64,000 nt of DNA from Alphaproteobacteria bacterium (GCA_964291285.2 OZ219786.1:640001-704000); one strand, 5' to 3'. Shown: positions 3,100-25,982, numbered from the stretch's first letter. Notes: a model not told the origin generated them from the sequence alone. A program made the numbers and translations.

Positions 3100-4929
3100 C
3101 TAGGAGAAGAGGAGTTTGGCAGACTGTATACCGGCGTCGTCCTGGAGATGTCGCCGCTGCCGGGCTTCCGGCCCGGCCGGGGGAAGCCGGGTCTGCAGCG
3201 TCTGCTCTGGCCCTGGCTGCGCGGATTCGGCGATCCGCTCGCATATGCGGGCGCCTGCGGGTTGCTCCTTGCGCTGCCGGGGATCGCCATTCCGTTGCTG
3301 CTCGCGGGCTTCGTCGACTACACACTCGAAGGTGGCGAGCAGGCTTGGGGCGCGGTGTTCGTCGGCGCGATGCTGGTGGCGTCCGCGCTCTTGTATGCGC
3401 TCACATGGTTGCAGCAACGCTGTTTGCATCGCCTGACCCTGCATGTCTCCGTGGAGCAGGCGGATCGCTTCGTCACGCGGCTCCTGCAACTCCCGATCGA
3501 CTACTTCTCGCGCCGCCAGCCCGGTGACATAGTGGCTCGCTTGAAGTCCATCGACGAGACGGCGGCCACGGCGTCGAGGGAACTTGTGGCGCTCTGCATC
3601 GAGCTGGCGATGAGTGCGCTCTTTCTTGTTCTGATGTTTGCGATGGACGGCTTGCTGGCGGCCATGGTGGCCACGCTGGCCGTCATGTGCGTGGCTCTGA
3701 TGCGCCTGCTTTCGCGATATCGAGTGGACACCAATCAGATCTGGAGCAAGGAGAAGGGCCAGCTACACGGCATCGAGATGGAGAACATCGGGCGAATCGA
3801 CTCCGCTCACGTCAAGGCACAGGAACACGATTGCCTCGCCCGGATGGGCGGGCACCAGGCGCGCGAGGTAGTCGCCCGACAACGGGTCTTCGCGCTCGGT
3901 CAAGTGATCGCGTCGTTCCCCGCGCTGTTCCAGGTGCTGGGCAGCGCGCTCGTACTGGGCTTCGGCGGCTGGCGCGTCATGGTCGGCGACATGAGTCCTG
4001 GTCTTCTGATGGGGTTCTTCCTCGTGGCGGAGAACTTTCTGCGCCCGGTGGCCCGCTTTGTGGAGTTCGCTGATCGGATGCGCGTTCTCGAAGCCGGCCT
4101 CCTGCGCGTACGCGATATCGCAGACGCCGCGCCTGACGAGGGCCAGACAACATTGCAGGACGGCACGGCTGCCCGGACGATTTCCACGATCGACGGCCGC
4201 CTGCGGACGGTCGGCCGCGTTCGCTTCGAGGACGTTACCTTCGGATACCGTCGCGGCGTGCCTCTCATCGAGAATTTCAGCCTGTCCGTCGAACCCGGCC
4301 AGCGGGTGGCCATCGTCGGGTCGAGCGGCTCCGGCAAGTCGACACTCGCCGGATTGCTCGCCGGCCTCAACCGGCCGTGGTCGGGACGCATCCTGCTCGA
4401 CGGCCATCCGCATGCCGACATTCCCAACCCCGTCCTGACCCGGTCCGTGGCAATCGTGGAGCAGCGCATCCAGCTCTTCGAGGGCAGCATTCGCGACAAC
4501 CTGACCATGTGGGACCCGACCGTGGCGGACGAAGCCATCATGGCGGCCGCCCGCGATGCGGCGATACACGACGAAATCATGGCCCGCGCAGATGGCTACG
4601 ATGCGCGTGTCGCCGAGGGAGGGCACAACTTCAGCGGCGGCCAGCGTCAACGGCTGGAAATCGCCCGCGCCCTCGTCAGCGACCCGTCCGTGTTGATCCT
4701 CGACGAAGCAACGGCGTCCCTGGATCCTGTGGTCGAACTGCGGGTGGACGACGCGTTGCGCCGTCGCGGCTGTACTTGCTTCATCGTCGCCCACCGTCTC
4801 AGCACGATCCGCGACGCCGACCTGATCGTTGTGCTCGAAAGCGGCAGGGAGGTGAAGCGCGGCTCCCACGAGCAACTGCTAGCCGAGCCCGGCGGCGCCT
4901 ACGGACGCCTGTTGGAGAGCGCGTCGTGA
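3100..4929 (+). pseudogene. NHLP-type bacteriocin export ABC transporter (peptidase/permease/ATPase type), N-terminal C39 domain lost
   Basis: TM domain plus NBD (GSSGSGKST, FSGGQRQR, ILDEAT); begins with LGEEEFGRLYTGVVLEM, resembling the tail of a C39 domain, directly at the IS end; longest ORF 3148-4929. Confidence 0.75.
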
Positions 4930-7900
4930 CGACGGCCAGGCCACGGGACGACGCCGTTGCCGTCGTCGACGCATTTCGGGAGCGGGCGACGGGAGCGGGC
5001 GAACCGGTCCGCGGCGGCGCCAACAGGATGGTCGTCCTCGACGACGCGAACGTTGTCTGGTTCGTCGAGAGCGGCTCGCTGGACGTCTTCGTTGTCGAGT
5101 ACCACGAGGCCGATGCCGCTCTTAGCGCGTCGAGACTCAAGCACGTGTTCCGGGCGGGGCCGGGAGAAGTTGCGTTCGCCTTCCTGCCCACCGAGTCCGC
5201 GTTGCGGCTCGTCGCAAAGGGTTCGGCGGACGCCCGACTGCGCCGGGTACCGGTCTCGGCCTTGCTCGACAAGGAATTTGTCAACGCGCTGTCCGGGCGA
5301 GTGGATGTGTGGGTGACGGCGCTCTGCGCGGCGGTCGTGCGCGACATCACGCTGCGCCCACGGATCGCCCGGCGCATCGAAGCTCCCGGCGAGGTGGAAC
5401 TGCCGGCGGGAGCCGTCGTGGCCGCCCGGCGCGGCGTGGCATGGATCACCTTGCCGGAAGACGGCGGAGGGGCAGCGTATCTGGACACCGAAGCGCTCGA
5501 CGGAGAGGGCCTCACGTTCGCCCCCGTTACCCGGGAAGCGTGGCTACGGCTCGGGGATCCGATCGCGCTGCCATGCGCCACCACCGAACAACTGCTGAGC
5601 AGCGGGGCTCTGTCGCGGGCTCTGGCGGATTTCCACTGTCTGATCGCGCGCGCCGAACTGTTCAACCGCCAACTGCTGTTGGCCGACGTGGCTCAGGCGC
5701 AGATGGAGTCGCGTCGCCATCAGCTTGCCAGCGAGCATGGTGCCCGGCGTGGCCTTGCCGGCCTCCTCCGACACGGTGCCGGCTGGCTGCGCGCGCGGGC
5801 GGATGCGGTTCCCGACGGTCGGCAAAGCGCGTTGGCGGCGGCACTCGCCGCCATCGGCGAGTGGGATGACATTCGATTTCGCGAACCCCGCACCGAGGGG
5901 CGGGACTCCGACACGATGCCGATGCTCGATGACATTCTGCACGCTTCCGGCGTGCGCGGCCGACGTGTCACACTGGCGGTCGAGGATCGCTGGTGGCGTG
6001 GCGACAGCGGCGCCCTGTTGGGGTTCCTGCGCGAGGGCGACGAGCCGGTGGCGCTGCTGCCGGGGCGGACGGGCGGCTACCGCATGGTGACTCATCGCGG
6101 TACCCGACGCATCGATGCCGCCGGGGCGCGGTTGCTCCACCCGCATGCGTGGACATTCCTTCGATCTTTGCCCGATGAGCGCAAGGCCACCGGCGGCGAT
6201 CTTCTGCGCACTGCCGGGACGCGTTTGGGCCTCGACCTGCTCCGCGTCTCACTGCTCGGCTTGGTAGTCGGCATGGTGTTGCTGGCTCCGGCTGTCGTGT
6301 TCGGCTTGCTGACCGACCACTTCATCCCCGCCGGCGCCGCTAGCGCGCTGCTGCAGTTGACCGCGCTGCTCGTCGTGCTGGGCGCGGCTGGCGCGGTGCT
6401 GCAAATTCTTCAGGGCACGACGATGCTGAAGCTGGAGGCGCGCATCGCCCTGCACCTCGATGCGGCGATTCAGGACCGAATGTACAAGCTGCCGCCGGCT
6501 TTCATGCGCAGATTCACAACCGGCGACCTCGCCATGCGTGCGTCCTCCTTCCGCACCCTTCGCGATCGTGTCTCGGGCATGATCCTGCAATCCCTGCTGT
6601 CCGCGGTCTTTCTGCTGCCCACATTCCTGTTCCTGTTCTTCTACGACATCGCCATGGGCTGGATCGGTCTGGCCCTGGGGGCGACCGTCCTAGCGCTCGG
6701 CGCCGTGCTCGGGTTCAGGCAGATCGAGCCTCAGCGTCGCTGGTTCGACGCGTCACGGGAGGTGGCGAGCGTACTGCGGCAGTTCCTGAACAGCATGGGA
6801 AAACTGCGAACCACCGGAGCCCAGGCGAGCGCATACACAATCTGGGCGCAACGATACCGGGAGCAGCAACGAGCGTTTGTCGACATCGGCACTTTCGACC
6901 ATCACCTGGTGGCGCTCGGCGTCGCGGCACCCGCATTCGCGGGGACGGTGCTTCTCTGGGCCGCGTGGACGCATTTCGATGGCACCACCGGTGACTTTCT
7001 CGCCATCTTTACTGCATTCATGGTCTTCAATCTGGCGATCACCCGGCTGGCAAATTCCTTCTCCGCGCTTGCCGGCGTCTGGCCGGGCGTGGACCAGGTG
7101 CGCCCGCTGCTGGAGCAGCAGCCGGACCCTCGTCTGGTGAGCGCCGAAACAACGAGCGGCAATGGCCGCGGCACGGTCGGCGGCGCGAGGAGCCGCAGCC
7201 GGCTCGCGCGATACGCGAACGCTGCGCCGGATTCCGAACCGGACACATCCACGAGAAGAGATATCGAGATCAGAGGCGGAATCGGTATCCACCACGTAAT
7301 ACCAACGGTCGTTGATTGGAACCGATAGCAGATCCTCCCTCCGCAGCTCGCCCCCTGAGCCGAGGCCTCCTACTGCAAGAGGTAATCTCCGCCGAGAGAG
7401 GCTAATCGGTTCTTATCTGTGGCCGGTGGTATAAGCTGGGGCTATGACGATGGGCCGCTGGTGCTCGAGGATGTGTCGCTGCATGCCGACCCCGGCGAGT
7501 TCATCGCCATCGTCGGCGGATCGGGCGCCGGCAAGAGCACCTTGCTGCGTCTGGCGCTCGGTCTGGCACGGCCGACATCGGGTTTCGTCAGCTATGACGG
7601 CCGGGATCTGGAGCATCTGGATGCGGTGTCGATACGGCGGCAAATCTCGGTCGTGCTGCAGGACGGCGACCTGCCGGAAGGCTCGGTGGAGGACGCGATT
7701 CTCGGGGTCTCGAACAGTCTCACCATCAACGACGCCTGGCAGGCGGCCCGCCTCGCGGCCGTCAGCGACGATATCGCCGCCATGCCGATGGGCATGCACA
7801 CCGTGATCGGATCCAGCGGGACAACGCTGTCCGGCGGCCAGGTTCAGCGCATCCAGATCGCCGCAGCGTTGGTGCGCAACCCCCACATCCTGATTCTCGA

Positions 7901-8126
7901 CGAAGCGACCAACTGGCTGGACAACCGGAAGCAGGCCGAGGTGATGCACAACATCGAACATCTGGAAATCACCCGCATCGTGGTAGCCCATCGGATGTCC
8001 ACGATTCGCCATGCCGACCGCATCTACGTACTTGAAGCGGGCAAGGTCGTTCAGCAGGGTTCCTATGGCGCCCTGGCCGACCGGGAGGGAACCTTTCGCG
8101 ATCTGATCCGGCGCCAGCTCGCTTGA
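4926..8126 (+). pseudogene. NHLP-type bacteriocin export ABC transporter permease/ATPase partner, interrupted by a 132-bp element
   Basis: GTGA overlap with upstream gene; WWRGDSGALLGF motif, TM domain, NBD (GGSGAGKST, LSGGQ, ILDEAT); removing 7300-7434 restores IGIHHV-SWGYDDGPLVL in frame. Confidence 0.85.
7300..7431 (+). mobile_element. 132-bp non-autonomous element (MITE-like), copy A
   Basis: TAA duplicated at 7297-7299 and 7432-7434; imperfect terminal inverted repeats TACCAACGG/CCGGTGGTA; 130/132 identical to the reverse complement of 25495-25626. Confidence 0.92.
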
Positions 8127-15447: not shown

Positions 15448-15537
15448 TGGCGGTGGGGGTGGGATTCGAACCCACGGTACGCTTGCGCGTACAACGGTTT
15501 TCGAGACCGCCCCGTTCAACCGCTCCGGCACCCCACC
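15448..15537 (-). tRNA. tRNA-Ser (anticodon CGA)
   Basis: GGTGGGG/CCCCACC acceptor stem, encoded CCA, anticodon loop CT-CGA-AA, long variable arm, GTTCGAATC T-loop; 90 nt. Confidence 0.97.
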
Positions 15538-24713: not shown

Positions 24714-25290
24714 GCGCAGCCACGCGGGCCTGCAATTCGGGCACGACCTCCGCCTCGAACCAGGGGTTCAGTTTCAGCCAGTTGTTCACCCGCCAGCTCG
24801 GATGCGGGATCGGCAGGAAGTCGGGCAGGTAGCCGCGCCACGCCGCCACGGTCTCGCCGAGCGTCTGTCTGCGCCGCTTCCCGAGATAGCGGGCCTGGGC
24901 GTAGGCGCCGGCCAGCACGGTGAGTTCCACTGCCGGGAGTTCGGCGCGCAGGCGCGGATGCCAGAGCGGCGCGCATTCCGGGCGGGGCGGAGCGTCGCCG
25001 CCACGCGGCAGCCGGCCCGGATAGCAGAAGCCCATCGGCAGGATGGCCACCCGGCTTGCATCGTAGAAGTCCTCGGGCGCGAGGCCGAGCCAGGCGCGCA
25101 GCCGCCTACCGCTTGCATCGTCCCAGGGCACGCCGCTCGCATGGACCTTCGTGCCGGGCGCCTGGCCGACGATCATCAACCGTGCGGCCGTTTCGGCCCG
25201 CAGCACCGGCCGGGGGCCGAGCGGCAGACGGTCGGCGCAATGCGTGCAACCGCGCACCTCCGCCAGAAGCGCCTCAAGCCGCGTGCTCAC
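24667..25290 (-). CDS. uracil-DNA glycosylase-family protein
   Basis: GQAPG, WDDASG, MGFCYPG, PHPSWR. Confidence 0.88.
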   Translation of the reverse strand: MSTRLEALLAEVRGCTHCADRLPLGPRPVLRAETAARLMIVGQAPGTKVHASGVPWDDASGRRLRAWLGLAPEDFYDASRVAILPMGFCYPGRLPRGGDAPPRPECAPLWHPRLRAELPAVELTVLAGAYAQARYLGKRRRQTLGETVAAWRGYLPDFLPIPHPSWRVNNWLKLNPWFEAEVVPELQARVAALTSPSSPRPPTGSSR

Positions 25291-25970
25291 GGCGCGAAGG
25301 CCTCGCCGCCGAAGGGATAGCGGACTTCCTCGCGATAGACCGGCGCCGCGCCGCCGAGCCGGCTCGACATGAGCGAGAAGCCGTCCACGGCGAAGGCCGG
25401 CAGGCGGAACGCGCCACGGTCCCCAAGCCAGGCTGCGACGGCGGCCGGGCGCGCGCCGGCCGTGCGGGCAAGGGTTATGTGCGGCGTGAACTTATACCAC
25501 CGGCCACAGATAAGAACCGATTAGCCTCTCTCGGCGGAGATTACCTCTTGCAGTAGGAGGCCTCGGCTCAGGGGGCGAGCTGCGGAGGGAGGCTCTGCTA
25601 TAGGTTCCAATCAACGACCGTTGGTATTACGCTCTTCCGCGGGAAGGCCGGCACGGACGAGCGCCGATTCGACGCGTCGCCTGAGCGCGGTCAGCGGCGC
25701 CGAGCCGGCGACCCCCGCCCAGACCGCCCGTGGCCGCGCACCCCCGAAGCTGCCCAGCGACTCGATGGCGAGCTCGAATTTCTCGCTGCCGACATGGCTG
25801 AGCGCGTCCGCCAGCTCCTCGGCAAAGCCCCGATCCACCTCGCCGATGAAGCGCAGCGTCAGGTGGTAGTTCTCCTCCGGCGACCAGCGCGCGCCGGGAA
25901 GGCCGCCCGCGAGTCCGGCAAGCTGCCGGCGGATGTCCTCCGGCAGGAGTATCGTGGCGAAGAGGCGCAA
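25287..25970 (-). pseudogene. thpR: RNA 2',3'-cyclic phosphodiesterase (2H family), interrupted by a 132-bp element
   Basis: MRLF, YHLTLRFIG; removing the insertion restores ER-KFTPHITLAR (second HxT motif) and an open frame to TGA at 25287. Confidence 0.9.
25495..25626 (-). mobile_element. 132-bp non-autonomous element (MITE-like), copy B
   Basis: TTA duplicated at 25492-25494 and 25627-25629; reverse complement of 7300-7431 with 2 substitutions. Confidence 0.92.
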
Positions 25971-25982
25971 GGTCCGGCCCGG

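Follow-up and report, generated by a model that had tools for sequence, protein, structure and literature searches.

A recently active 132-bp MITE that interrupts two genes of an alphaproteobacterial genome, duplicates TNA, and probably depends on an IS630-family insertion sequence

The window analyzed here, a stretch of 64,000 nucleotides, corresponds to C2:640001-704000 in the genome of an Alphaproteobacteria bacterium (6.13 Mb, five contigs, 68% GC). It contains an ABC transporter gene and a gene for a ThpR/LigT-like 2H phosphoesterase, each interrupted by one copy of the same 132-bp element, designated copy A and copy B. The features of the two loci, in coordinates of the window, are as follows.

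4377..7296, plus strand: upstream part of the ABC transporter gene, transmembrane domain (ABC_membrane, E 1.4e-13)
7297..7299, plus strand: TAA target-site duplication on the left of copy A; a single TAA is kept in the empty-site contigs
7300..7431, plus strand: MITE copy A, 132 bp, TACCA...TGGTA, of the apparently youngest subfamily, with 5 identical members genome-wide
7300..7329, plus strand: left terminal inverted repeat of copy A (20/30 against the left end of the 1167-bp IS described below)
7402..7431, plus strand: right terminal inverted repeat of copy A (reverse complement 23/30 against the same IS left end)
7432..7434, plus strand: TAA duplication on the right of copy A
7435..8126, plus strand: downstream part of the ABC transporter gene with its ATPase domain, continuing the upstream frame (ABC_tran, E 1.6e-31)
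25287..25491, minus strand: C-terminal part of the 2H phosphoesterase, starting (K)FTPHITLAR with the second H-x-T motif; the end is approximate
25492..25494, minus strand: TAA duplication on the element-right side of copy B
25495..25626, minus strand: MITE copy B, 132 bp, of the commonest subfamily (14 identical copies)
25627..25629, minus strand: TAA duplication on the element-left side of copy B
25630..25982, minus strand: N-terminal part of the 2H phosphoesterase with the first H-x-T motif (HLTLRF); the range is that of the open frame, the start codon not being fixed

Copies A and B are identical at 130 of 132 positions, with mismatches at element positions 25 and 34, and both stand in the context CG-TAA-element-TAA-G, with TAA flanking each end. 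The element starts with TACCA and finishes with TGGTA, and its outer 30 bp or so form an imperfect inverted repeat. In copy A, the two terminal repeats are identical at 20 of 30 positions in an ungapped comparison, and the inverted-repeat arms extend over 7292-7326 and 7405-7439 with a complementarity of 71%. The core of about 70 bp between the terminal repeats is non-coding. Five of the six reading frames of the MITE contain stops, and the single open frame, in the sense direction, comprises 44 codons. As a single strand, the element folds into one long hairpin (-54.4 kcal/mol and z = -3.5 as RNA; z = -3.3 as DNA). The initial annotation, made from the sequence of the window, had described two non-coding 132-bp copies with this identity and these imperfect repeats, and all of it is borne out.

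In the filled allele, the upstream frame of the ABC transporter ends at the TAG at 7326-7328 within copy A. The resulting ORF (4377-7328) and the downstream ORF (7419-8126) lie in a common frame, and copy A falls between the ABC_membrane and ABC_tran domains. Copy B cuts the ThpR/LigT-type phosphoesterase immediately before its second H-x-T motif. Orthologues of the phosphoesterase were found in all 12 same-genus genomes searched, with open frames of 187-569 codons compared with 123 here. The seven same-genus orthologues that were fetched all contain the uninterrupted stretch ...EERKF[T/A]PH[I/V]TL..., where the gene in this genome reads EER-NTNGR(stop)...(stop)...WY-KFTPHITLAR. The two genes differ in the codon phase of the duplicated TAA. 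As previously annotated, both copies lie in the sense orientation of their host genes and add 135 bp with in-frame stops. The length is indeed a multiple of three, but it is merely the sum of 132 and 3 and is the same for every copy. Because stops lie inside the 135-base insert in the host frames of both A and B, the two insertions are, as the DNA stands, plain knock-outs of the ABC transporter and the 2H phosphoesterase.

A genome-wide blastn census, which the initial annotation had proposed on the basis of two copies, identified 28 full-length copies distributed over all five contigs, and one further copy split by an unrelated IS. Such a number in 6.1 Mb goes well past what chance would give. 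Five copies have exactly the sequence of copy A, 14 that of copy B's type (98.5% identity to A), five show 97.0% identity, and four show 85.6-93.1%. Hence 24 of the 28 full copies lie within 97-100% identity, and the four at 85.6-93.1% are older. Merging the copies within duplicated regions leaves 24 distinct sites. All 23 intact sites carry the same trinucleotide TNA on either side of the element (TTA at nine, TAA at six, TCA at five, and TGA at three). The preferred target is roughly S-TNA-S, since G or C precedes the duplication at 23 of 23 sites and follows it at 19 of 23. Insertion has therefore duplicated a 3-bp target, TNA. The TAA duplicated at CGTAAG in both A and B, as originally read, stands. 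The alternative of a 2-bp TA duplication is excluded by the 23 TNA sites, the lone TAA at the empty site, and the lone CGT-AAG in the orthologues; a rule restricted to TWA also fails against the 23 TNA sites.

Gene context was not informative from ORF length alone at 68% GC. We therefore scored both sides of each reconstructed empty site by codon usage, with a model that had 1258 long ORFs as its training set, and checked the half-genes by Pfam. Eight copies are candidate intragenic insertions, as follows.

Copy A and copy B: sense
C3:271994: sense, by codon score only, without a Pfam match
C4:681524: sense, inside another IS630-type orfA, by translation and tblastn
C2:1166617: sense, in a gene for a fibronectin-III repeat protein
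C1:407341: sense, in a PLD-like gene (weak Pfam match)
C1:590684: antisense, in a class I/II aminotransferase gene whose halves match consecutive parts of the profiles
C5:311369: antisense, in a Transposase_29 gene of which both halves match

At the remaining 16 sites, the element lies between genes or at a stop codon, or has no clear assignment. Six sense and two antisense copies do not depart significantly from an even distribution (two-sided binomial p = 0.29), and most copies are intergenic or at stop codons, so the oriented target choice suggested from copies A and B finds no support. Among the five copies identical to A, three disrupt genes.

Three public runs labelled as one organism (X1, X2, and X3) contain the flanks of copy A, and we examined their contigs. 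The longest contigs in these runs measure 41-169 kb, which identifies the runs as DNA. A 10,396-bp contig of X2 and a 5,991-bp contig of X3 span the site of copy A with exactly 135 bp skipped. The empty joint runs from 7296 to 7432 with three ambiguous bases, and there are otherwise zero differences across the 951 bases compared. X1 shows the same empty joint, and its contigs break there. The search for empty junctions, envisaged when the element was first noticed, thus returned the exact junction in contigs of all three runs, and the empty-site contigs link both parts of the ABC transporter gene. Since the contigs of all three runs agree with the assembly on either side of the site and lack just these 135 bp, copy A inserted very recently and is polymorphic among the sequenced samples of the organism. 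At this site, the one site compared, the assembled sequence differs from the other sequenced samples. The T at 7333, which marks the subfamily of copy A, is absent from the contigs of X2 and X3 and accounts for a small fraction in X1, which is a hint at most, since rare variants can be lost from contigs. The simplest reading of the five identical copies is that they constitute the newest burst in the assembled lineage.

The full-length element was absent from the 40 other genomes searched. Of 41 relatives compared, this genome was the only one in which the exact MITE family was found; two MAG lineages also carry it. Other short elements, with nothing but the left end in common with it, occur in 11 of 16 same-genus genomes. 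Since related species are without the MITE, the empty allele is presumably the ancestral, pre-insertion state rather than a product of excision.

The initial annotation had considered a role of the element as a switch, in which precise excision of the MITE would restore a single TNA and toggle the genes off and on, the empty alleles in the runs being excision products. If this were true, footprint-free excision would make the insertion a reversible on/off switch, a bacterial analogue of intragenic transposon relics that undergo precise elimination. The exact empty junction of copy A in all three runs would fit such excision, the contig break in X1 may mean that two forms coexist, and the long terminal hairpin together with the direct repeats could favor slippage deletion. 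However, the empty form in X2 and X3 lies within contigs of 6-10 kb at the depth of the flanks, as expected for a fixed, pre-insertion allele but not for excision products, which would be rare, and the distribution of the T at 7333 is in keeping with a fresh burst within the assembled lineage. Repair of the double-strand breaks made by excision usually leaves a footprint and not a clean single TNA. Cut-and-paste excision in this superfamily passes through such breaks at the element ends, according to an extract of PMC2170065. The depth of the empty form and this route of excision together disfavor precise excision. Further points against a switch are the two antisense intragenic copies, the location of most copies outside genes, and the complete absence of the MITE from related species. 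We consider a reversible switch very unlikely, and a recent insertion into an ancestral empty site remains our reading of copy A.

No IS630-type transposase lies within the window coordinates, in keeping with the earlier remark that no transposase in the window has matching ends. A genome-wide search with the MITE ends, tolerating up to 6 mismatches per 24 bases, revealed outside the window an IS of 1167 bp with a left end starting TACCAGCGGGCATAG..., and so the partner with TACCA...TGGTA ends that had been postulated does exist. It is present in 10 full-length copies of 98.5-100% identity and in truncated or interrupted copies. Its termini are TACCA...TGGTA, with matching TNA on both sides in 8 of the 10 full copies, and G/C-TNA precedes all 14 of its left ends. 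Two candidates from these searches were rejected. Solo ends like TACCAACGGTCATTGATCGGAACC, considered as IS ends, belong to other short non-coding elements. A copy of about 2.1 kb at C2:1295778-1297854, considered as an autonomous partner, proved to be a MITE into which an unrelated IS, with a 9-bp duplication of its own, has inserted.

The 1167-bp IS contains orfA, coding for a helix-turn-helix (HTH) protein of 169 residues, and, in the -1 frame, orfB, coding for a DDE_3 domain; a run of seven A forms the junction between the two. Pfam assigned orfA to HTH_33/HTH_32 (also HTH_29 in the IS transposase) and orfB to DDE_3 (E 6e-26). Both orfA and orfB match the NCBIfam model transpos_IS630 (1.4e-25 and 1.9e-44, respectively), orfB scoring 152.4 bits against a curated cutoff of 100 bits. 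Frameshifting or transcriptional realignment is known as a decoding mode in IS630, as noted in an extract of PMC5009743.

Compared with the left end of this IS, the two MITE ends are identical at 20/30 and 23/30 positions, and the IS's own two ends agree at only 18/30. The similarity is limited to approximately the outer 27 bp, and the cores are unrelated. Two more IS630-type groups occur in the genome, one of about 1230 bp with TACCA...TGGTA ends beside TNA and one of about 1090 bp that has this left end too; the MITE resembles the 1167-bp IS more closely than it does either group. In addition, within one 8-kb locus of a MAG record, a MITE of 97% identity lies together with the same IS (96% identity for orfA and 98% for orfB). 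We assign the MITE on this evidence to the IS630 clade of the 1167-bp IS, which may be its parent. The 1167-bp IS is probably the source of the MITE transposase, and the groups of about 1230 bp and 1090 bp could be further contributors. The earlier proposal of a non-coding MITE mobilized in trans is supported at the level of sequence comparison. Of the two partner families then named, IS630 holds, as a DDE_3 IS shares the ends; no IS5-type element appeared among the matches of the end search.

The 132-bp element is a MITE by each defining feature tested, namely size, repeats, duplication, copy number, polymorphism, and the presence of a related autonomous element. Copies A and B very likely represent a MITE moved in trans by an IS630-family transposase, both being ordinary knock-outs and copy A being very recent. 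A DDE transposase provided in trans by an IS630-family IS would move the MITE by cut-and-paste, the best transposase candidate in the genome being the 1167-bp IS with its HTH orfA, DDE_3 orfB, and seven-A run. Integration at S-TNA-S with a 3-bp stagger would then duplicate TNA, and insertion would take place without orientation preference relative to genes. For the annotation of this genome, the ABC exporter gene and the 2H phosphoesterase gene of the window, together with several genes elsewhere, are to be taken as recent knock-outs by a MITE that appears to be currently active. Neither the MITE nor its partner IS opens a new mechanism.

PIF/Harbinger elements and certain IS5 subgroups typically leave a 3-bp TNA duplication, and a transposase of that type mobilizing the MITE would be the conventional reading of TNA. 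The characterized IS630 members are in keeping with this reading: an extract of PMC2170065 gives TA as the target of IS630 and ISY100, with a 2-bp duplication, and also describes a cut-and-paste mechanism for IS630-family transposases. Against it, the matches of the end search, besides MITE copies and short non-coding elements, were only the ends of IS630-family IS; no IS5-type element with TACCAACGG-type ends was seen in this genome-wide search by MITE end sequence. Moreover, the three IS630-type groups of this very genome all carry TACCA ends beside TNA. Mobilization by an IS5 or PIF/Harbinger type of transposase is in our view highly improbable, and an IS630-family transposase is retained.

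The TNA duplication extends to relatives of the 1167-bp IS in other genera. The structure TNA-TACCA...TGGTA-TNA was found in five of seven related IS630-family elements, in five genera (Sinorhizobium fredii, Methylobacterium sp., Sphingobium, Methylorubrum extorquens CM4, and Jiella); the ends of the other two, from Agrobacterium vitis and Novosphingobium, were not located by a simple inverted-repeat search. The TA rule of IS630 accordingly does not hold here, with TNA at 23/23 sites for the MITE, 8/10 for the IS, and 5/7 for the relatives in other genera, and the clade departs from the target rule of the characterized IS630 members. It is possible, though rather doubtful, that a 3-bp stagger at S-TNA-S targets is the rule in this widespread IS630 clade of Alphaproteobacteria, one that is undescribed for IS630/Tc1/mariner in the searched literature. 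We found no paper linking IS630 with a TNA duplication in that literature. Taken together, the 23 MITE sites, the 10 copies of the IS, and the 5 relatives from other genera form a natural data set that shows an IS630-family clade with TNA instead of TA. This blurs the rule of thumb for MITEs by which TA indicates IS630/Tc1-mariner and TNA indicates IS5/PIF-Harbinger.

The hairpin had also raised the idea that the terminal stem brings the gene halves together so that the 135 nucleotides are removed from the RNA or bypassed in translation and the host proteins are still made. We aligned 17 distinct sequences, comprising the copies of this genome and relatives of 78-97% identity from MAG records, and the consensus fold consists of the terminal-repeat stem with small internal hairpins. 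A length divisible by three, the sense orientation of A and B, and the stable fold are what such removal would lead one to expect, but its probability is close to nil: just one of the 32 pairs in the consensus has changed on both sides, in a single event that separates two subfamilies; the right-end differences between the subfamilies are uncompensated on the left; no Rfam family reached the gathering score, the best being a miRNA model with 20 bits against 44 and an E-value of 0.052; the TAA codon phase differs between A and B; antisense intragenic copies exist; and the longest contigs (41-169 kb) of the runs with the skipped form indicate DNA. No promoter-like or terminator-like sites were found within the element, and nothing supports an RNA function of the MITE.

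Among known systems, the closest counterparts are IS630-derived bacterial MITEs, for example Nezha in cyanobacteria and the Correia elements in Neisseria. The element described here shares with them a size of about 100-150 bp, imperfect terminal repeats, the lack of coding capacity, a copy number in the tens, insertion both within and between genes, and a co-resident, related full-length IS as the source, here the probable one, of a transposase acting in trans. It differs from them in duplicating a 3-bp TNA at S-TNA-S and not a 2-bp TA. Tourist-like MITEs, PIF-Harbinger elements, and some IS5 subgroups have a 3-bp TNA or TWA duplication in common with it; here, however, the ends are tied to IS630 (DDE_3), and all four central bases are used. 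The partner IS itself resembles IS630 and ISY100 in having an HTH and a DDE_3 domain, short imperfect inverted repeats, and a target that is palindromic around T..A, whereas its transposase is split over two frames with the seven-A junction. The plasmid and phage collections searched gave no match to the 132-bp element, and the MITE in an extract of the Methylobacterium genome paper is a different one of about 400 bp (PMC2680597).

The frame-preserving length of the insert is also found in another kind of repeat. It is shared with the palindromic elements of Rickettsia, which are short, frame-keeping palindromic inserts in coding genes that are translated within the host protein. Copies A and B differ from these in carrying stops in the host frame. 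The one open sense frame of the MITE is used at perhaps one site, that in the PLD-like gene at C1:407341.

The 1167-bp insertion sequence (IS) of the IS630 family, the likely transposase source for the MITE, is represented by the following full copy and nine others in the source genome (G000).

G000:C3:88415-89581 (= L001:201-1367), 1167-bp IS630-family IS, full copy

The 3-bp TNA target-site duplication at S-TNA-S (S being G or C) was found in eight of the ten full copies, and likewise in five of seven related IS630-family elements, from five other genera (loci L015, L016, L047, L049, and L050). Whereas IS630/ISY100 produces a 2-bp TA duplication, the IS630-family clade sharing the TACCA...TGGTA ends has the 3-bp TNA duplication instead.

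Relatives of the MITE also occur in metagenome-assembled genome (MAG) records, and other short non-coding elements carry a MITE-like left end.

MAG records OZ220487.1, OZ219790.1, and OZ219791.1 (loci L033-L046), MITE relatives of 132-133 bp with TNA flanks
G000:C3:1279847, C3:22779, C1:611966, C1:615526, and C3:2019071, and loci L004-L014, short non-coding elements with a MITE-like left end

One of the MAG-record relatives is 97% identical to the MITE and adjoins the same 1167-bp IS as in the source genome. A 6-Mb record labelled Candidatus Binatia contains at least 10 relatives with 78-84% identity, the variant core of which is also found as loose ends in the public DNA runs of the source organism (X1-X3). 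Like the MITE, the short elements have TNA flanks and a left end of ~24 nt with the sequence TACCAACGGTC.TTGA...GGAACC; their interiors differ and their right ends are degenerate. They often lie directly 3' of a stop codon, and elements of this kind are present in 11 of 16 same-genus genomes.

Two MITE copies, belonging to two different young subfamilies, occupy an equivalent TCA site.

G000:C3:84957-85088, MITE copy at the TCA site
G000:C5:402268-402399, MITE copy at the equivalent TCA site

This site is the junction of two abutting genes within a ~3-kb repeat, of which at least 14 copies, 87-94% identical, were found. Two subfamilies fill one site that has no MITE in about 12 paralogous copies; the pattern points to an insertion hot spot or gene conversion.

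Across the window, Rfam gives a single match at gathering score, to a tRNA gene.

15451-15537, minus strand, tRNA gene

The right end of copy A contains a GTG that opens an ORF (window 7419-8126) in frame with the ATPase domain, which would in principle allow the ATPase to be made on its own; the closest purine-rich stretch is located 16 nt upstream, beyond the typical spacing of a ribosome-binding site. The MITE has one sense frame without stops from end to end (44 codons), and for the copy inside a PLD-like gene (G000:C1:407341-407472) the duplicated target is TTA, in codon phase 0. Translation would therefore continue through this MITE, adding 45 residues in frame and leaving the protein untruncated. 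Another copy (G000:C2:1295778-1297854, L002) is itself interrupted by an unrelated ~1.95-kb IS, which encodes a 513-aa DDE transposase and is associated with a 9-bp duplication.
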